Below are positions 33,938 through 41,076 of a DNA stretch of 64,000 nucleotides, one piece after another; the first letter of the stretch is position 1; the number at the start of each line of letters is the position of its first letter. The notes beneath the pieces are model-generated. The model was not told the DNA's origin. It saw nothing but the letters and a program-made list of their open reading frames with translations, and made no database searches. The position numbers and the translations under genes are program-made. This DNA comes from an uncultured Ignavibacteria bacterium (GTDB lineage: Bacteria; Zixibacteria; MSB-5A5; DSPP01): contig CAZSIT010000005.1 in assembly GCA_964607165.1 (NCBI GenBank), forward strand, positions 13,492 through 77,491, in the 5' to 3' direction.

Positions 33938-34128
33938 ATTCCTTCCTTCCGGTAATATAGGGGTTATTTTTGCGGTTGCGTAATTCATACATACGACAAA
34001 CAAAGGTATATGCGGGGGATAACAACCCGATTCTTGCTCACCTGCTAACCTAAGCCCTTTGCCCCCCCTGGCCGAGTCCCGAGCTCGTCTCGGGCAGGCC
34101 TTCCCGAAACGGGAAGGGGAAAGAGAAA

Positions 34129-34975: not shown

Positions 34976-35785
34976 TTAATTCCCGGTAGTTGAGACTTCT
35001 TTTTTGGTCTCAAAATTCGGCGGCGTCAACTGTTTCTCCGGCACCGTTACCGTCAACGGGCTTTGCAAGTTGAAGGTCAAGGTCAAGCCGGCTGGATAGA
35101 TTATGTTTTCACGTCCGGTGGCAGCAGCCGCTCCCGTTCCCGCCGCCGCTCCGGCAACGGCGCCGATTAAGGCGCCTTTCTTTTTACCCAAAAGTCCACC
35201 GACGATCGCGCCGGCTGCGGCTCCGCCGCCAATCATCCCGACTTCCCGGCCGGTGTGCGATTTACCCTTTTTGTAAACGGTGTCCACTTCCACCGCGTAG
35301 GTTTTGCCCTTCGGCGTGGTAATCTCGGTCACCACGAAAGCAATCTCGGGGGAAGTTTTCAACGTGCCGCCTTTAACCAGCTTGGTGATTACGCCTGTGC
35401 AAGTGGAGCCCGAGGGAATGAGAATTTTGCCTTCCATTTCCACCGGTTCATCCAGCGTGCCGGTGAAAGCATCGCCTTCCTGGTTTTTGTTGGTTTGCAA
35501 GGTATCGTTCAAGGTGACTTTAAGCGGCGTGCCGGATGGAATGGTAACCTTTACGTATTTTGGTTTGGGCGGAGTTTTCTTTTCCACCGTTTTTACCGGT
35601 TCGGTTTTGGTTTCCATCGGCGGGGTTTCGGTCGTGGTTGTGGGCTGTTCGGTTGTTGCTGGGGTGGTCTGGCCGAAGGACTCGTCCGTCGGCTGGGTTT
35701 GGTCGGCAGTTTCCTCTTTTTTGCTGCAGCCGACAGCCATAAAAGCGGCGAGCAAAAACAGGGTTAAAATTCTTTTTGCGCTCAT
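34976..35785 (-). CDS. Lipoprotein with a low-complexity T/P/E-rich linker and a C-terminal glycine-zipper (SlyB/Pcp-like) segment.
   Basis: It has a lipobox (AVGC) after the signal peptide and a long G/A zipper near the C-terminus. Confidence 0.55.
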   Translation of the reverse strand: MSAKRILTLFLLAAFMAVGCSKKEETADQTQPTDESFGQTTPATTEQPTTTTETPPMETKTEPVKTVEKKTPPKPKYVKVTIPSGTPLKVTLNDTLQTNKNQEGDAFTGTLDEPVEMEGKILIPSGSTCTGVITKLVKGGTLKTSPEIAFVVTEITTPKGKTYAVEVDTVYKKGKSHTGREVGMIGGGAAAGAIVGGLLGKKKGALIGAVAGAAAGTGAAAATGRENIIYPAGLTLTFNLQSPLTVTVPEKQLTPPNFETKKEVSTTGN

Positions 35786-35999
35786 TTTTCCTCCTTCTAT
35801 TCTCTTTTACAAACTACAAACCCGCTTGGGCGGACATCTTTTGAACTTTTAAAATACCTACGGAACCCGCCGGGCGCAAGGAAAATGCGCCGTATTGTAT
35901 TATCGGCAGGAAGGCGGGAAGGTAGAGGGAGTTTGTAAAAGGATACGACAAGGTTTTTCGCTTCCTCAAGGTGACAAAAGCGCTTTTACGTAAAACCAG

Positions 36000-36027
36000 T
36001 TGACGGGTTTTGGGCGATTTCTATATT
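36000..36027 (+). promoter_or_regulatory. Candidate promoter TTGACG-N16-TATATT upstream of the tRNA-Lys pair.
   Basis: The hexamers match the sigma70 consensus, but the spacing to the tRNA (about 125 nt) is long. Confidence 0.3.
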
Positions 36028-36156
36028 CGGCTTGGCTTATCCCTGGCCCGCCGTAGGCAGGCTCGGGTAGGCGCTCCAGCCATTTTGAAGACGAAGTATT
36101 CCTTCGCCTTCAGCTGAAGCCGTCAAATTGAATGCGGATTCAGCGTTAGAACGACT

Positions 36157-36228
36157 GGGGGTGTAGCTCAGTGGTAGAGCATCTGCCTTTTAAGCAGGAG
36201 GTCGATGGTTCGATCCCATCCACCCTCA
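36157..36228 (+). tRNA. tRNA-Lys (anticodon UUU).
   Basis: It folds as a cloverleaf with the anticodon loop CTTTTAA, TTCGATC in the T-loop, and a 7-bp acceptor stem with discriminator A. Confidence 0.85.
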
Positions 36229-36235
36229 GATAAAT

Positions 36236-36273
36236 ACAGAGATTAGAGACCGGAGATTAGAGATTAGTAAAAA
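36236..36273 (+). repeat. GAGATTA heptad-repeat trailer element (ACAGAGATTAGAGACCGGAGATTAGAGATTAGTAAAAA).
   Basis: It is a tandem 7-nt periodic repeat immediately 3' of tRNA-Lys(UUU). Near-identical copies are at 38775-38813 and a partial copy at 36365-36390. Confidence 0.7.
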
Positions 36274-36284
36274 CAAAAAATCTT

Positions 36285-36357
<73 letters not shown>

Positions 36358-36394
36358 TAGAAGACAGAGATTAGATTCGAGATTAGAAAACTCC

Positions 36395-37156
36395 TTGAAA
36401 TCCGCTCTTGAATTAGCCAAAAAAGCTTCTTTGAAGGCCGGGGAAGCGGCCTTACGCTATTTTCACGGTGGCGCTAATGTTTCCATCAAATCCGACGGAA
36501 CGCCGGTGACCCAAGCGGATAAAGAGGCGGAAGAAATAATCATCCATGTTCTCAAAAAAGAAATGCCGGACTGTGGGTTTTTAGGAGAAGAATTCGGCGA
36601 GCAAGGCCCAAAGGATAAGCGTTGGATTATAGACCCGATTGACGGGACCAAAAATTTTATACGAGGAATACCGGTCTGGGCGGTGATGATTGGATTGGAG
36701 GAAGGGGGAGAAATTACCGCTGGGGTTGTCTATAATCCTGCAACGAAACAGCTCTGGACGGCGGCAAAAGACTTGGGGGCGTATTACAACGGCGAACGAA
36801 TTTCGATTTCCGCCATCGATTCGCTCGCAAATGCCCAACTGTTGCACAGCGGGTTGAATACGATGCGGAAAAGCAAGTACTGGGATGGGTTCTTACGGCT
36901 GGTAGAATCAACCAAACGCCAACGCGGGCCGGGAGATTTTCTGGGATATACGATGGTGGCGCAGGGACAAGGGGAGATTTATTTGGAGAATGAATTGAAG
37001 CCGTGGGATATTGCCGCAAATCAAATTATCGTAAAAGAAGCCGGCGGAGAGTTTACGGATTTTGAGGGGGGTTCAAGCATTTATTCCGGGTCGGCCTTGG
37101 CGACGAATGGAAAGTTGCATCGGCTGGTTTTGGAGATTCTTCAAGGCCAGACGTAG
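36395..37156 (+). CDS. Inositol monophosphatase family protein (SuhB/HisN-like).
   Basis: It has IMPase motifs (WIIDPIDGT, ...GD...). A TTG start is proposed downstream of the heptad repeat, since the longer ORF from 36350 would be translated through repeat DNA. Confidence 0.75.
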   Translation: MKSALELAKKASLKAGEAALRYFHGGANVSIKSDGTPVTQADKEAEEIIIHVLKKEMPDCGFLGEEFGEQGPKDKRWIIDPIDGTKNFIRGIPVWAVMIGLEEGGEITAGVVYNPATKQLWTAAKDLGAYYNGERISISAIDSLANAQLLHSGLNTMRKSKYWDGFLRLVESTKRQRGPGDFLGYTMVAQGQGEIYLENELKPWDIAANQIIVKEAGGEFTDFEGGSSIYSGSALATNGKLHRLVLEILQGQT

Positions 37157-37204
37157 GGGCGAATCGCCAGATTCGCCCGGGTGAGCCTGAAGGTTCACCC
37201 CTAC
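37153..37204. repeat. REP pair in alternating orientation, as in E. coli BIMEs: GTAGGGGCGAATCGCCAGATTCGCCC then GGGTGAGCCTGAAGGTTCACCCCTAC.
   Basis: This is the second copy of the two-hairpin unit seen at 31309-31361. Confidence 0.7.
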
Positions 37205-37279
37205 ATTTGAAACATTTTGATATTTCCTTATATTTCACCGTTGGGCGGGTATGTCCCCGTTCATCAGAGGAGGTTATTT

Positions 37280-37774
37280 ATGTTTATGGGCAGAGTAGTA
37301 CGTACGGCTGGGTTAGTCGCCGGAATTTTTGCGTTCGCTGTTTTTGCTTTTGCGGGCGAAGAAGAAGAAAAACAGCTTACCAAACAAGATGTGCCTGTGG
37401 CCGTGCTTGCGGCTTTCGAAAAAGCTTATCCAAAAGCGGTGGTTAAGGGCTATTCAAAGGAAGAAAAAGATGGAAAAACCCTTTACGAAGTCGAAAGCTT
37501 GGAAGGCAAAACTCATCTCGACGTTTCATACCTCGAGGACGGCAGCCTGTTTGTGACGGAGGAAGTCGTGGCCGTGAAAAGTCTGCCGGAGGCGGTGAGA
37601 CAGACAGTCAAAAAAGAGCATCCGAAAGGAAAGATTAAACTGGCGGAGAAAATTACAGAGGGAACGATCGTTGAATATGAAGTAGTTGTCGCCCTTGGGA
37701 AAAAGAAGTTCGAAATAAAGCTGGATGCAAGCGGCAAAGTTTTAGAGAGCGAAGAGGCGAAAGAAGCCGAATAG
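37280..37774 (+). CDS. Secreted PepSY-like domain protein (two repeats).
   Basis: It has a signal peptide and duplicated GK.LYEVE...G.E...D..G motifs. The start was taken at the ATG with an upstream GGAGG. Confidence 0.55.
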   Translation: MFMGRVVRTAGLVAGIFAFAVFAFAGEEEEKQLTKQDVPVAVLAAFEKAYPKAVVKGYSKEEKDGKTLYEVESLEGKTHLDVSYLEDGSLFVTEEVVAVKSLPEAVRQTVKKEHPKGKIKLAEKITEGTIVEYEVVVALGKKKFEIKLDASGKVLESEEAKEAE

Positions 37775-37785
37775 GGTTGTAAGAA

Positions 37786-37810
37786 GGGCGAACACGAGGT
37801 TCGCCCCTAC
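37786..37810. repeat. REP: GGGCGAACACGAGGTTCGCCCCTAC.
   Basis: It is almost identical to the REP at 1673-1700. Confidence 0.7.
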
Positions 37811-37977
37811 GAAACATTTTGGCGTTGCTTGCGGTTGAAAATAGGGCTGGAACTGTGGCCCTCTTTTGCCGTATATTATACGGTCGGGCGGGCATGACCC
37901 CGCCTCTGTACCAGTTTCTCCCCGGCTTCCCCGCCTGTCCGAGCTCCGATGCAATCGGAGCCAGGAGGGCAATCTCT

Positions 37978-38336
37978 GGGGGCGATCGGTTTCGACGAGG
38001 ACAAGGAGAAAAAGCTGGCCTGTCGAGCACCCCGTAAGCTCGTTAATCTCGCGGGATACCATTAAGTGCGAACGATTACGTTGCACTGGCTGCCTAATAA
38101 AATAGCGTAGCCCGTTTGACCTGCGCATGCCCTTTGGCGTAGGATCAGGCGTCGACCAAAAGGGCTGGGTGGCCGGGTGTTCGGGACCGGCGGCCGAGGA
38201 GAACTCTCGAGCTGGTCCGGGCTTGAGCCCGCCTGCGGCATAAGTCCGGATGAATAAAAAAGAAAAAAGGCTACACAGGTAGATGGCTTTTTTGAATTTC
38301 CTTCGGACGCGGGTTCGATTCCCGCCGCCTCCACCA
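37978..38336 (+). ncRNA. ssrA: Transfer-messenger RNA (tmRNA, SsrA), standard one-piece. Its tag ORF encodes ANDYVALAA followed by two stop codons.
   Basis: The 5' end is GGGGGCG and the 3' end CGCCUCCACCA, forming an acceptor stem with a G3·U wobble, the Ala identity element. It has a tRNA-like T-arm GCGGGTTCGATTCCCGC. The tag reading frame GCG AAC GAT TAC GTT GCA CTG GCT GCC TAA TAA sits at 38068-38100. Confidence 0.85.
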
Positions 38337-38348
38337 ATTTCAACCACA

Positions 38349-38427
38349 TTTGAATTTCCTTCGGACGCGGGTTCGCCTGCCCGAGCCGGGGACCTCTGGC
38401 CACGGCCAGGGATTCCCCCCGCCTCCA
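38349..38427 (+). repeat. Direct repeat A: copy of the ssrA 3' end (T-arm plus acceptor). It carries a 39-nt insertion in the T-loop and lacks the CCA end.
   Basis: Positions 38349-38375 are identical to tmRNA 38290-38316. Then comes CCTGCCCGAGCCGGGGACCTCTGGCCACGGCCAGGGATT, then CCCCCGCCTCCA. Confidence 0.75.
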
Positions 38428-38431
38428 TTTT

Positions 38432-38701
38432 TTGAATATATTCCGGCCAATGCCATATTATTTTTATGTGTTGCAATCTTCAAAGGATGGTTCCCTTTAC
38501 AAAGGAAGTGCTGAAAATATTGAGATACGTTTAGCCCAGCACAATTCCGGAAAAACGAAAAGTTTGAAGCATCGAATTCCCTTCAAAATGGTTTACTTCG
38601 AAGAATTTTCGACCCGTGAGGAGGCTTTGGCACGGGAGAAGTGGTCGAAAAGTTTGCAGGGAGGCAAAGTTCTTCGCGAACTGTTAAGGGGAAAAATCTA
38701 A
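38432..38701 (+). CDS. GIY-YIG nuclease family protein (UPF0213/YhbQ-like).
   Basis: It has the GIY-YIG core YVLQSSKDGSLYKGSAENIEIRLAQHNSG plus a conserved Glu region (EEFSTREEALAREKW). The ORF exactly fills the space between direct repeats A and B, and it is AT-rich. Confidence 0.8.
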   Translation: MNIFRPMPYYFYVLQSSKDGSLYKGSAENIEIRLAQHNSGKTKSLKHRIPFKMVYFEEFSTREEALAREKWSKSLQGGKVLRELLRGKI

Positions 38702-38703
38702 TC

Positions 38704-38767
38704 GGATGCGGGTTCGCCTGCCCGAGCCGGGGCCTCGTGCCACGGCCAGGGATTCCCACCGCCTCCA
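38704..38767 (+). repeat. Direct repeat B: second ssrA-3'-end-like copy with the same 39-nt T-loop insertion.
   Basis: It is about 90% identical to repeat A. It starts 3 nt after the GIY-YIG stop and is followed at once by the GAGATTA heptad element (38775-38813). Confidence 0.75.
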
Positions 38768-38774
38768 TTTTAAT

Positions 38775-38813
38775 ACAGAGATTGGAGACTGGAGATTAGA
38801 GATTAGTAAAAAA
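38775..38813 (+). repeat. GAGATTA heptad-repeat trailer element (third copy).
   Basis: ACAGAGATTGGAGACTGGAGATTAGAGATTAGTAAAAAA is about 90% identical to 36236-36273. Confidence 0.7.
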
Positions 38814-38920
38814 CCGAATCGTCACTTTTTATTTGGTAGTGGCAACCTTTAGGTTTCCATATCTTGATTTTATGCTGACACATATGAAAAAACGAAAAGA
38901 GAGATGAGGCGGGTGATGGT

Positions 38921-40117
38921 ATGTCCTTGACAGATATTTGGTTGAAGTCTCGAAATCAGCTTGAAGAAAAACACATCCAACAAATAATTTCCTTTTCGGG
39001 GGACGGACAACTTAAGGATGGAAGCAAAGCGTCGGACGAATTCCGAAGTTTTCTTTCAAATGTACCCTCGATTTTTCTTCGCCGATATGCAGATCAATGT
39101 CTGCAAAATTCGTTTAACAATTCAGGACTTGTACTTCAAGATATTATTAATCAAGTTGGACGACGCTTAGGTTTCAAAGTTACGGATGGCAGGTATCGTG
39201 GCACTGTCGGCCAAATTGGATATGATGGTATATGGGACTTTCCTTTAGAGCATTCGGTAATTGTGGAGGTTAAAACAACCGATGCATACCGAATTGATCT
39301 GGACACCATTGCTCAATACCGGCGGACTTTAATTGATAATGGAACGATTTCAAAAGAGAATTCATCAATTCTAATCATTGTTGGTCGTGGCGACACTGGG
39401 GACTTAGAAGCTCAGATTAGAGGGTCACGTCATGCGTGGGACGTTAGACTAATCAGCATTGACGCGCTCATGAGATTGTTGGCATTAAAAGAAGCCGTTG
39501 AAGACCCGAAAATTATTAACAGAATCCATGCAATATTGATTCCGAGAGAGTTTACTAAACTTGACGAGATAATTGAGGTTGTGTTTTCCACTGCTGAAGA
39601 TGTGAAACAAGAGGAAGTAGAAAAAGTAGACGTTCAGGATAAACTCACTACGAAAACGGATACTCCGGTCTCATTCCACGAAGCGTGCATTGACCGTATA
39701 CAAAAACATTTGAAATGCTCTCTTGTCAAGCGTTCTCGCGCTTCATTTTCATCGGCGGACGGCTCACTTGCTTTGATCTGTGCTATTTCAAAAACCTACG
39801 ATAAAGATACTCGAATGGTGTTTTGGTTTGCTTTTCACCCTCACCAAAGGGAATTCTTAGAGCATGCAAAACAAGGCTTCGTTGCGTTCGGGTGCGGATC
39901 AGTGGAAACCTTGTTATTAATACCGGCGCCAGAGTTTTTGCCATGGTTAGATGGAATGAACATAACTGAACTTGAAAACAAAAAATATTATTGGCATGTC
40001 CATATTTTCTATGAAAATGGAAAGTTCAGTCTTTATAGAAAGAAGGGGGCAAAGCAATTTGATTTAACGAAATTTTTGATTCCCGGCGAATCAAGTGCAA
40101 AACGACCCAATAAATAA
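38921..40117 (+). CDS. Hypothetical 398-aa protein. It has an Mrr-cat-like PD-(D/E)xK nuclease motif in the N-terminal half and an uncharacterised C-terminal domain.
   Basis: GQIGYDGIWDF...VIVEVKTT fits the D...(D/E)xK pattern of Mrr-type restriction endonuclease cores. The C-terminal 200 aa (..FWFAFHPHQREF...YYWHVHIFYENG..) match nothing I recognise. The gene is strongly AT-rich relative to its flanks and has an upstream GAGG RBS. Confidence 0.5.
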   Translation: MSLTDIWLKSRNQLEEKHIQQIISFSGDGQLKDGSKASDEFRSFLSNVPSIFLRRYADQCLQNSFNNSGLVLQDIINQVGRRLGFKVTDGRYRGTVGQIGYDGIWDFPLEHSVIVEVKTTDAYRIDLDTIAQYRRTLIDNGTISKENSSILIIVGRGDTGDLEAQIRGSRHAWDVRLISIDALMRLLALKEAVEDPKIINRIHAILIPREFTKLDEIIEVVFSTAEDVKQEEVEKVDVQDKLTTKTDTPVSFHEACIDRIQKHLKCSLVKRSRASFSSADGSLALICAISKTYDKDTRMVFWFAFHPHQREFLEHAKQGFVAFGCGSVETLLLIPAPEFLPWLDGMNITELENKKYYWHVHIFYENGKFSLYRKKGAKQFDLTKFLIPGESSAKRPNK

Positions 40118-40257
40118 AACTTTCTCTATAAACAACGCGAAGAATTGGCAGCTTTAGAGCAAGCAAAAATGTGAACCGCCCCGATGACAGTCACAGTAGA
40201 AGAGGGAGCCCAAAATGTTCACTACCCTGATAACCATCACTTATAAGGAGGTAAAAT

Positions 40258-41076
40258 ATGACTGAATTGACACCCGAAATGGAATCCCTCAAAACCAAGC
40301 TAAAAGCCACCTGGATGGCGGGAGATTTTGGGCAGATTGCCAAATCGATAGAGGATGGGGCGGCGGAGTTCATCACCCGCCTGCAAATTCCTAAAGGTGC
40401 CAAAGTGCTGGACGTGGCCTGCGGCACCGGAAATTTGGCCGTCCCGGCGGCGCGGGCAGGCGCGGTTGTAACCGGTCTCGATTTCGCAACCAACCTCGTC
40501 GAGCAAGCGCGCGTGCGGGCTAAAGCGGAAGGGTTGAACATCGAGTACCACGAAGGGGATGCGGAAGCGATGCCTTATACGGATGGCTCCTTCGACGTGG
40601 TGGTTACGATGTTTGGCGCGATGTTCTGCCCGCGGCCCGAGCGGGCGGCGGCGGAACTCATTCGCGTTTGCAAGCCGGGCGGGCAGATTGCAATGGCCAA
40701 CTGGACGCCTGCGGGATTCGCGGGCCAGATGTTCAAACTTTCCGGAATGTACGCCCCGCCCCCTCCCGGAATGCACCCGCCGGTTTTGTGGGGGGATGAA
40801 GAGACCGTGAAAGAACGCTTGCGCGAAGGAATCGGGGATTTGAAGTTCACCAAGCGAATGATGATTATCAAATATTCTTTCGGCCCGGCAGAAGTCGTCG
40901 AGCATTTCATCCGCTACTTTGGCCCAACCAAAAAGGCCTACGAATCGCTGGATGCGAGGGGGCAACAAGCGTATCGGGAAGATATGGTGAAGCTCTGGTC
41001 GCAACACAACCGCGCCACCGGCGGCAGCACGCGCGTGGAAGGAGAATATCTCGAAGCAATCGCAGTGCGGGGTTGA
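40258..41076 (+). CDS. Class I SAM-dependent methyltransferase.
   Basis: It has SAM-binding motif I (VLDVACGTGNLA) and a strong AAGGAGGT RBS. Confidence 0.8.
   Translation: MTELTPEMESLKTKLKATWMAGDFGQIAKSIEDGAAEFITRLQIPKGAKVLDVACGTGNLAVPAARAGAVVTGLDFATNLVEQARVRAKAEGLNIEYHEGDAEAMPYTDGSFDVVVTMFGAMFCPRPERAAAELIRVCKPGGQIAMANWTPAGFAGQMFKLSGMYAPPPPGMHPPVLWGDEETVKERLREGIGDLKFTKRMMIIKYSFGPAEVVEHFIRYFGPTKKAYESLDARGQQAYREDMVKLWSQHNRATGGSTRVEGEYLEAIAVRG

Follow-up and report, generated by a model that had tools for sequence, protein, structure and literature searches.

A small GIY-YIG nuclease gene between hairpin-broken copies of the ssrA 3' end: a candidate integrase-less cassette of tRNA and tmRNA genes

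How does a gene come to lie directly behind an essential RNA gene, framed by broken copies of that gene's own 3' end, where no integrase is encoded nearby? The question is raised by a stretch of 64,000 nucleotides (nt) from an uncultured Ignavibacteria bacterium, placed by GTDB among the Zixibacteria (contig CAZSIT010000005.1, positions 13,492 to 77,491; the whole stretch is called the window here). In it, ssrA, the gene for transfer-messenger RNA (tmRNA), is followed by two interrupted copies of its 3' end and a small gene for a GIY-YIG nuclease. A first-pass annotation, made from the letters of the window, took this span for a single AT-rich islet, perhaps a decayed integrase island, and offered a small self-contained module aimed at tRNA-like T-arms as the alternative. 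The latter idea is supported by the comparisons described here, since the gene and an interrupted copy recur together at many tRNA and tmRNA genes. On balance, we read the GIY-YIG gene and the hairpin-broken ssrA copies as a minimal, integrase-less selfish cassette of about 0.3 kb with a homing-endonuclease-like way of life, a reading held with a little more belief than doubt. The cassette belongs to a large class found at tRNA and tmRNA genes.

The elements from ssrA to the end of the second copy are arranged as follows.

37978..38336, forward strand: ssrA, intact, with tag ANDYVALAA and an encoded CCA (ARAGORN; Rfam RF00023)
38337..38348, forward strand: 12-nt spacer ATTTCAACCACA between ssrA and copy 1 (sequence and locus comparison)
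38349..38427, forward strand: copy 1, a gene-less unit
38349-38375, forward strand: A' of copy 1, 27 nt of ssrA up to the T-loop TTCG
38376-38411, forward strand: hairpin of copy 1, 36 nt
38412-38427, forward strand: B of copy 1, ATTCCCCCCGCCTCCA, without CCA
38428..38449, forward strand: T-run and 22-nt leader TTTTTTGAATATATTCCGGCCA before the GIY-YIG start
38450..38701, forward strand: GIY-YIG nuclease gene, 83 amino acids, UPF0213-like, catalytic domain alone (Pfam PF01541)
38702..38767, forward strand: copy 2, beginning right behind the GIY-YIG stop codon
38702-38716, forward strand: A' of copy 2, TCGGATGCGGGTTCG, 15 nt, up to the T-loop TTCG
38717-38751, forward strand: hairpin of copy 2, 35 nt
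38752-38767, forward strand: B of copy 2, ATTCCCACCGCCTCCA

The tmRNA gene and its terminal CCA were correctly recognised from the letters, as ARAGORN and a full-length match to RF00023 (183.8 bits) confirm. The two copies of its 3' end are equally real. Both represent the T-arm and the acceptor 3' half of ssrA, with a GC-rich hairpin between TTCG and ATT of the T-loop, followed by segment B (ATTCCCNCCGCCTCCA), which in both cases matches ssrA 38318-38333. They are 91-97% identical to each other. The left (22 nt) and right (19 nt) junctions of the insert each occur exactly twice in the 64 kb, compared with means of 0.01 and 0.04 in 100 dinucleotide-preserving shuffles of the window, none of which reached two occurrences. 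Several details of the first-pass annotation had to be revised. The insert measures 36 nt in copy 1 and 35 nt in copy 2 instead of 39 nt, and copy 2 is now placed at 38702-38767. The lack of CCA holds for copy 1 of the window, but it is not a fixed feature, as the distal copies of two related loci (L001 and L003; comparison loci bear L numbers) end with CCA. Nor does the open reading frame (ORF) fit between the repeats with gaps of 4 and 3 nt: its TTG start at 38432 is a mechanical ORF call, and its stop codon (TAA, 38699-38701) abuts copy 2. The real start is probably ATG 38450, 22 nt past copy 1, because the orthologues are all 83 amino acids long and begin with MPYYFY.

An Rfam scan of 35500-41000 at E <=1 returned only the tmRNA, two tRNAs and weak echoes of permuted tmRNA; a group I intron or another known RNA family in the repeats was rejected, there being no such match in this region. 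Rather than a two-piece tmRNA, the permuted-tmRNA matches (37851-38097, 37.5 bits; 38305-38377, 30.4 bits; gathering score 47) probably reflect the tandem T-arm sequences; the second of them runs from the 3' end of ssrA into copy 1.

The protein encoded between the copies looks functional, judging from its dN/dS values and from the residues conserved at motif positions. Its match to PF01541 covers residues 9-73 with 54.6 bits (gathering cut-off 22.6), and its relatives in the PDB are 1ywl (E 5.5e-8) and 1zg2. Among 15-20 diverse members, Y17, K18, G19, R27, H31 and N32 are invariant, and Y6 and E63 are conserved in at least 90%. We take Y6 to be the tyrosine of the GIY motif, Y17 and G19 to be the Tyr-x-Gly of YIG, R27 the motif arginine and E63 the metal-binding glutamate. 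Non-synonymous divergence (dN) is 0.1-0.2, synonymous divergence (dS) is saturated, and the gene is under purifying selection. The GIY-YIG domain spans nearly the whole protein of 79-83 amino acids, and no separate DNA-binding domain is present in it. The best profile match, P0145, has 168 amino acids and combines PF10544 with PF01541; it is a possible two-domain relative that could hint at the source of target binding in other lineages. At four loci (L004 4240-4539, L042, L098 and L109), the GIY ORF stays open across the T-arm copy and extends, without a change of frame, into the left hairpin arm, giving C-terminal tails that end in ...GSPARAG.... These loci represent three independent targets (two ssrA lineages, tRNA-Tyr and tRNA-Met); the lineage of the window has a stop codon in the same frame just ahead of the copy.

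The same design is found far beyond this ssrA gene. A profile search at E <=1e-10 yields at least 6,744 protein clusters, mostly from Bacteroidota, with Lentisphaerota, Kiritimatiellota and Limisphaerales, and about 36 distinct loci with GIY homologues were compared. At every assessable one of them, the homologue is adjoined by a co-oriented tRNA gene, tmRNA gene or tRNA fragment; not a single opposite-strand pair occurs among them. The GIY gene starts between -3 and +50 nt from the 3' end of the RNA gene in about two thirds of the loci, and by a rough estimate a random gene would sit so near such an end well under 1% of the time. In the remainder, it lies up to about 300 nt away or, in a mirror arrangement, just upstream of the RNA gene. 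A hairpin-broken copy of the adjoining RNA gene accompanies it at nearly all loci. The targets are tRNA-Arg, Gln, Ser, Cys, Tyr, Met, Thr and Phe and two ssrA lineages, and at ordinary tRNA genes the design is kept even with more distant homologues (45-62% identity). Related hairpins and the combination of GIY gene and interrupted copy recur at other tRNA and tmRNA loci, in the kind of database search that the first-pass annotation had suggested.

Unit number varies between close relatives, which may have 0, 1, 2 or 4. In a Chitinophagales population (L006-L011), near-identical contigs carry one, two or four identical 300-bp units right after tRNA-Arg(ACG), in each of which an 80-amino-acid GIY gene is joined by a T-arm/acceptor copy whose T-loop holds a 20-nt hairpin. 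One 484-bp unit in a relative corresponds to two in the isolate Flavobacterium sp. MAHUQ-51 (L160/L161), and in a Kaistella isolate the hairpin occupies the anticodon loop. The mirror arrangement is seen in L012, where a 5' half of tRNA-Arg(CCT) with a 32-nt D-loop hairpin precedes the GIY gene and the intact tRNA gene follows it. In L163, the acceptor strand of the interrupted copy reads CGGGACT against TGAGACT in the resident tRNA-Arg; the copy is therefore a foreign tRNA-Arg allele that probably came with the cassette. In L162, an integrase gene adjoins the unit and the tRNA-Phe on which the unit lies is no more than a 3' fragment, which implies that only the sequence from the T-arm to the end is needed.

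Two scans extend this set. A genome scan, with one genome per species and based on a six-sequence alignment, gave 18 loci, 14 of which have a co-oriented tRNA gene within about 300 nt; k-mer mapping found interrupted second copies in nearly all of these 14, and three of the other four carry interrupted copies that ARAGORN cannot call. A metagenome scan with an 18-nt junction returned mostly chance matches in GC-rich coding DNA, and fewer than 20 of the inspected loci were real hairpin copies. It added L042, a second ssrA lineage (tag ANAQPLALAA), as well as L098 (tRNA-Tyr), L109 (tRNA-Met) and L135 (tRNA-Thr). No phage or viral relatives of the cassette were found, including in IMG/VR, and a phage or plasmid origin was rejected, as phage and plasmid records give only distant UPF0213 matches (35-44% identity). 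Assemblies of an Emticicia isolate and of a Lentisphaerota metagenome-assembled genome (MAG) break inside the GIY gene (contig ends L020, L028, L029 and L030), which suggests several near-identical copies per genome.

Across these loci, the sequences show one anatomy: a short leader, the 83-amino-acid GIY-YIG gene, A' (8-27 nt of target sequence up to a loop), the GC-rich hairpin, and B, which extends to the 3' end of the target. The unit is co-oriented with an intact copy of its target and placed directly behind it, and its presence and number differ among close relatives.

The absence of an integrase, already remarked on from the letters, is borne out. No recombinase candidate exists among the ORFs across 36.5-42.5 kb of the window, four of which were examined with Pfam, and the syntenic orthologues in neighbouring genomes have no recombinase domain. 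Within about 3 kb, no recombinase gene was found at the locus in the window or at most other loci, and none at all in L001-L012; one is nearby at only two of the roughly 36 loci. These two have a tyrosine integrase and a large serine recombinase directly beside the GIY unit (L162 1-1023, on the tRNA-Phe fragment; L163/L164 1443-2649, at tRNA-Arg). Cassettes and classical islands use common attachment genes.

The history of the unit at ssrA can be followed in the contigs that encode the closest GIY-YIG proteins (70-96% identical), which come from MAGs labelled Limisphaerales and Zixibacteria. These contigs represent one chromosomal locus, with ssrA, the GIY gene and then a gene for a 272-amino-acid S-adenosylmethionine (SAM) methyltransferase; those that reach far enough also share the upstream tRNA-Lys genes or a PepSY-like gene. 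The GIY/hairpin module is kept at six of seven related ssrA loci, and three structural states occur.

State S2 (window, L002, L003): ssrA with CCA, spacer, copy with hairpin, leader, GIY gene, copy with hairpin
State S1 (L001, L004, L005): ssrA without encoded CCA, leader, GIY gene, copy with hairpin
State S0 (L058): ssrA with CCA, spacer, copy with hairpin, heptads, no GIY gene

Copy 1 is thus present in L002, L003 and L058, together with a spacer similar to that of the window, and both are missing from L001, L004 and L005. In the latter three, a closely similar 22-nt leader, identical to that of the window in L001, stands directly 3' of ssrA. A counterpart of copy 2 lies 3' of the GIY gene in L001-L005, L042, L098, L109, L135 and L162. 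Judging from the repeats, S1 and S0 could each be derived from S2 by a deletion between repeats, and S2 could equally be derived from S0 by the insertion of one unit. Alignment to related ssrA loci, as proposed with the first-pass annotation, showed a clear structural polymorphism of the module, and no truly empty allele was found. Relatives do have the module, but because of this polymorphism the refutation offered with the first-pass annotation does not apply. The tmRNA genes of L001 (497-852), L004 (3861-4217) and L005 (405-761) end in GCCTCCA, followed by TTTTTT; as ssrA has no encoded CCA there, CCA must be added post-transcriptionally. This difference from the window coincides with the gain or loss of the gene-less unit.

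Comparison with L001 indicates that the module has a history of its own. A block at about 37780-38750 (ssrA promoter, ssrA, GIY gene and copy 2) is 98-100% identical between the two, the genes on either side of it are only 83-90% identical, and the two loci nevertheless differ in state (S2 versus S1). For this pair, dS is 0.04 in the GIY gene and 0.44 in the methyltransferase gene, values that stem from a short gene and few pairs. In other pairs, dS of the GIY gene is saturated and that of the flanks is 0.6-0.9, so that the GIY gene is more diverged than its flanks. The evolutionary history of the module thus differs from that of the flanks.

The inserts that break the copies form one family of hairpins, 19 to 96 nt long. 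The type found in ssrA and in the Planctomycetota-Verrucomicrobiota-Chlamydiota (PVC) group has the form CCTGCCCGAGCC...GGCCAGGG, and Bacteroidota hairpins have the form CCCGCCCGAACG...CGTTCGGGCGGG or CCTGYCTGCCGNNAGGCAGG. In the PVC type, an outer stem, a 5' asymmetric bulge (CCCGA) and a middle stem (GCCG/CGGC) are all conserved, and the inner stem shows compensatory pairs between loci (AACCCG/CGGGTT, GCCCG/CGGGC, ACGAGT/ACTCGT and CACGA/TCGTG). With weak fold z-scores (-0.4 to -1.9) in the window, the idea that the insert folds stably as an RNA by itself was rejected, and the structure is backed by the compensatory changes between loci. Hairpins occupy D, anticodon, variable or T loops, several of them in some copies, and their orientation relative to the RNA gene is constant in all T-loop cases examined. 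One T-loop copy of tRNA-Thr (L135 415-500) holds three tandem hairpins, the second and third of which are short forms CCTGCCCGAGTCGGCCAGGG.

Hairpins stay close to the gene. In 6-kb Bacteroidota loci, they are confined to about 400 nt around the GIY gene. The 64 kb of the window contain four, all within 4.7 kb of the gene and with none further in the remaining 55 kb or so. Besides those in the two copies, they are the following solo hairpins, 2.4 and 4.4 kb upstream of the GIY gene.

36041..36071, reverse strand: solo hairpin CCTACCCGAGCC...GGCCAGGG, about 85 nt upstream of tRNA-Lys(TTT)
34066..34098, reverse strand: second solo hairpin CCTGCCCGAGACGAGCTCGGGACTCGGCCAGGG, intergenic

Gene-less hairpin units are known from copy 1 of the window, L058 (ssrA), L119 (tRNA-Leu) and L051 (tRNA-Gln). 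Hairpin-bearing ssrA 3' fragments also occur with no tmRNA gene within several kb (L136 10460-10580 and L044 14190-14270), and that of L136 reaches more than 60 nt upstream of the T-loop; these fragments may be the far ends of larger islands inserted in ssrA. L136 was also considered as a functional ssrA broken by a hairpin in the manner of an intron, and this was rejected, because a 3' fragment is all that the locus contains and no tmRNA can be detected in it.

How might such a cassette spread? According to the selfish-cassette reading, the GIY-YIG nuclease would make the initiating break, and the cassette would enter through recombination somewhere between the T-loop and the 3' end. Entry would rebuild a working ssrA and displace the partial copy, as integrative islands do, and repair would copy the cassette and co-convert ssrA in a homing-like manner. 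The hairpin would break the displaced copy at the very loop that is cut or recombined, blocking re-cleavage, and would shorten direct repeats that are otherwise prone to delete the cassette. Copy 1 would be a unit after gene loss or one that never had a gene. The GIY gene itself would be promoterless and expressed by read-through from ssrA, which is the module's target and likely transcriptional driver; a promoter and terminator scan gave nothing informative. As in homing endonuclease genes, polymorphism at one site and a history incongruent with the flanks are observed; the separate DNA-binding domain of such genes is not.

Several observations weigh against this reading. The mechanism is put together from sequence comparison, and no cleavage, circular intermediate or transcript has been observed. 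A catalytic domain of 83 amino acids without a DNA-binding domain is unlike characterised homing endonucleases and leaves recognition of a long site unexplained. The rebuilt ssrA keeps an intact T-loop and should therefore stay cleavable if the T-loop is the target. The target-derived A' between gene and hairpin is not predicted by a single cut-and-paste insertion. Gene-less hairpin units exist, so duplication and hairpin can persist or arise without the gene, and no ssrA locus free of any hairpin copy was found in this lineage. Finally, the block of 98-100% identity includes a highly constrained RNA gene; constraint alone does not explain it, however, because identity is just as high in the 200-nt promoter region and in the GIY gene. 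The missing DNA-binding domain, the intact rebuilt loop, the position of A' and the gene-less units keep three other explanations alive.

The first of these, which we regard as unlikely, is mobilisation in trans: the hairpin and the T-arm halves would be a folded, attC-like site for a recombinase encoded elsewhere, and the GIY-YIG gene would be its commonest passenger or a stabiliser. The conserved ends, the CCCGA bulge, the middle stem and the variable but compensated inner stem do resemble the layout of integron attC sites, and the constant hairpin orientation in T-loop cases suggests a strand-specific folded substrate. Arrays behind a strong promoter would also fit, as would units with other contents, namely a spacer only, heptads, or in L002 a glyoxalase gene with a partial copy. 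Against these points, no conserved recombinase was seen at the loci (whole genomes were not surveyed), GIY-YIG is the content of nearly all units, and the confinement of Bacteroidota hairpins to about 400 nt around the GIY gene speaks for a functional link between gene and hairpin.

The second explanation, to which a similarly small probability is given, starts from the hairpin itself. A palindrome resembling repetitive extragenic palindromic (REP) sequences or miniature inverted-repeat transposable elements would insert into tRNA-like loops, with the GIY-YIG protein as a structure-specific mobilising nuclease, comparable to the REP-associated tyrosine transposase (RAYT). Since an insertion that hits a live gene is lethal, non-functional duplicates would be the only place where hairpins are found. 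Their precise placement in D, anticodon, variable or T loops, with several per pseudo-copy and a tandem series in one L135 T-loop, favours this view, and so do the solo hairpins at 34066 and 36041, no more than 4.5 kb from the GIY gene and nowhere else in the 64 kb. GIY-YIG relatives such as Slx1 are structure-specific nucleases, and a catalytic domain of 83 amino acids fits structure recognition better than sequence recognition. What the hairpin-centred view leaves unexplained is the constant abutment of the GIY gene to the 3' end of a tRNA or tmRNA gene on the same strand, and the origin of the target duplication; solo hairpins are, moreover, few.

More doubtful still is a domesticated host function, in which the small GIY-YIG protein would be a housekeeping factor at tRNA and tmRNA loci (in RNA processing or tDNA repair) and the copies would be by-products of rearrangement. 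Purifying selection on the gene, its retention at six of seven related ssrA loci and a geometry that would allow co-transcription with the RNA gene agree with it. A housekeeping gene would hardly be expected in 0, 1, 2 or 4 copies among near-identical strains, at different tRNAs in different genomes and even at a dead tRNA fragment; its history is also incongruent with the flanks, and assemblies break at the gene, as fits multi-copy repeats. The least likely explanation is a decayed integrase-borne island resembling a cis-mobilisable element (CIME), in which a tyrosine or serine recombinase would have crossed over in the T-loop, its gene would since have been lost, and former attL/attR sites would persist as the repeats. 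Islands specific to ssrA do carry such direct repeats of its 3' end as their hallmark, a cargo hotspot lies beyond them and recombinase genes stand beside the unit in L162 and L163/L164, but a one-gene unit of 0.3-0.5 kb, always with GIY-YIG as its sole gene, recurs at more than ten tRNA and tmRNA targets in several phyla, a recombinase is nearby at only two of about 36 loci, target sequence lies both 5' and 3' of the hairpin in the repeats, where identity is expected only from the crossover to the 3' end, and the hairpins form a conserved family with several in some copies.

The selfish-cassette reading can also be set against known systems. The Seg proteins of T4-like phages have about 200 amino acids or more, including a DNA-binding domain, unlike the cassette protein with its 79-83 amino acids and catalytic domain only. 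The segB gene, which encodes a free-standing GIY-YIG homing endonuclease between tRNA-Arg and tRNA-Ile, resembles the cassette as an intergenic GIY-YIG gene beside tRNA genes, and its preferential inheritance with co-conversion of the flanks (PMC2988022) recalls the high-identity block around the gene in the window and L001. In contrast to the cassette, segB has neither a target duplication nor a hairpin-interrupted copy. The ssrA islands of Dehalococcoides insert in the T-loop by means of a serine integrase, and like CIMEs they share with the cassette the integration at the ssrA 3' end, the regenerated gene, the direct repeat at the far end and the tandem arrays (PMC3146451). The distal direct repeat of the target 3' end, as in an island or CIME, is found in the cassette, and a recombinase gene within the element is not. 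It also differs from these islands in its size of 0.3-0.5 kb with one gene, in a repeat that extends 5' past the T-loop and is interrupted by a conserved hairpin, and in recurring at D, anticodon and variable loops of tRNAs.

Integron cassettes consist of a single promoterless gene and an attC palindrome with conserved ends, unpaired bases and a variable centre, and are stacked behind a strong promoter. The combination of an ORF and an imperfect palindrome in one orientation is similar here, a likeness of layout between unrelated sequences. Unlike integrons, the locus has no IntI, attI or Pc and no integrase candidate, and its driver would be ssrA; the palindrome is embedded in a copy of an RNA gene, and the content is nearly always one nuclease. 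REP/RAYT systems and Rickettsia palindromic elements are gene-invading palindromes, and a Rickettsia element has reportedly been found inside a tmRNA gene. They share with the hairpins the short GC-rich form, the conserved ends and the location within structured RNA genes, with a nuclease gene as the possible mobilising partner. The differences are a GIY-YIG nuclease in place of an HUH transposase and hairpins that cluster near the gene instead of genome-wide; no HUH (RAYT) or DDE transposase was noticed near the loci (genomes were not surveyed). A group I intron reportedly lies in the T-loop of a Clostridium botulinum tmRNA gene, which PMC3984707 did not confirm; it would have the same insertion point, and introns of this type often carry GIY-YIG genes. 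Here, however, there is no ribozyme (Rfam), the functional ssrA is uninterrupted, and the insert is a 35-36-nt hairpin in a non-functional copy. Stand-alone GIY-YIG proteins of the UPF0213/YhbQ type (PDB 1ywl and 1zg2) have the same domain and the same size, but the UPF0213 matches from Listeria, Bacillus, Staphylococcus and rhizobia are only 35-44% identical to the cassette protein. The full-text literature searched, which mostly leaves out subscription journals, so that an earlier account is possible, nowhere describes small GIY-YIG genes that adjoin tRNA genes and interrupted copies of them.

A wider proposal can be put forward only tentatively. The thousands of GIY-YIG genes of about 80 amino acids in Bacteroidota and PVC bacteria might represent the nuclease of an unrecognised minimal mobile element, a 0.3-kb cassette that attaches to the loops of tRNA and tmRNA genes by means of a conserved folded hairpin, rebuilds the host gene, leaves a hairpin-broken copy behind and builds arrays behind the RNA-gene promoter. 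Such an element might then be a nuclease-driven counterpart of integron cassettes or intron homing that needs neither recombinase nor ribozyme. If moved by its own nuclease, the cassette would rank with the smallest autonomous mobile DNAs and would represent a third way for a selfish gene to settle in an essential RNA gene and leave it working: introns and inteins remove themselves by splicing, islands use a replacement 3' end and an integrase, and the cassette would use a replacement segment, a nuclease and a hairpin. This would explain why tRNA genes are adjoined by thousands of genes annotated "GIY-YIG nuclease family protein", why GC-rich inserts occur in apparent tRNA pseudogenes or fragments, and why contigs break at cassette sites in Bacteroidota assemblies. 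An 80-amino-acid nuclease with a short hairpin marking tDNA loops could become a tool if its recognition rule were worked out.

What remains of the AT-rich islet lies beyond copy 2, where three further features follow.

38768..38815, forward strand: GAGATTR heptad trailer, 95% identical to 36233-36273 downstream of tRNA-Lys(TTT)
about 38816..40212, forward strand: strain-specific AT-rich cargo block of about 1.4 kb, which holds a 398-amino-acid ORF (38921-40117)
40258..41076, forward strand: gene for the 272-amino-acid class-I SAM methyltransferase, UbiE-like, conserved (Pfam; synteny)

The single islet and decayed integrase island of the first-pass annotation are not supported: the span is a composite of three layers, as the GIY/hairpin module is common to six of seven related ssrA loci, the heptads are native and only the block of about 1.4 kb is strain-specific. 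The ssrA flank of the window is thus a layered hotspot, in which the restriction-endonuclease-like gene of the cargo block is a separate, recent arrival.

Heptads, likewise first counted as a part of the islet, are also found 3' of tRNA-Lys(CTT), of tRNA-Lys in L004 and L005 and of tRNA-Gln in L051. Because other tRNA genes carry them, they are the ordinary stable-RNA trailer of the lineage and not an inserted module, and they were rejected as a component of the islet. The GAGATTR/GGGATTR element ACAGAGATTAGAGACYGGAGATTAGAGATTAGTAAAAAC (window 36230-36275, 36359-36392 and 38768-38815; L051 6709-6745) stands 3' of each tRNA or tmRNA gene observed in the lineage of the window, and might serve as a lineage-specific terminator, as a signal for processing or as a protein-binding trailer.

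The interval between the heptads and the methyltransferase gene differs in content between relatives.

Window: 398-amino-acid ORF
L001: 300-amino-acid protein and kinase
L002: glyoxalase, YbaK-like gene, 224-amino-acid protein
L003: nothing
L004, L005, L058: YbaK-like gene

The methyltransferase gene is the right-hand boundary of this hotspot in all relatives, and its native upstream region (40213-40260) is common to the window and L001. In L002, a third partial copy (hairpin end, B and heptads; 1330-1400) lies behind the glyoxalase gene, which looks like a further cassette bounded by the same repeats as the GIY unit.

The AT-richness of the downstream region was well observed, with 38-42% GC in 38800-40150 and 50-62% in the flanks. 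No repeats were found flanking the 398-amino-acid cargo, and its gene is an unrelated, separate, recent arrival in the variable hotspot beyond the heptads. It had been described as an orphan Mrr-like nuclease gene, of which the nuclease-type fold and the orphan status stand and the relation to Mrr does not: the protein reaches no Pfam, NCBIfam or PADLOC family above threshold, and by structure it matches type II and IIS enzymes best, not Mrr. The UbiE-like methyltransferase, by family and synteny, is an unlikely DNA methyltransferase partner; being conserved and present also where the ORF is absent, it leaves the ORF an orphan. More than 3,800 homologue clusters exist at 57-66% identity, with no Pfam domain among the 120 listed, and they come from several phyla, judged from few named sources; the protein looks like a member of an uncharacterised, horizontally mobile orphan nuclease family. 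Its N-terminal domain has a PD-(D/E)XK restriction-endonuclease fold with a D...(D/E)xK motif, in which D102, E116 and K118 are invariant. This fold is similar to those of HindIII and FokI; the C-terminal domain, at residues 250-390, is separate from it and rich in beta structure.

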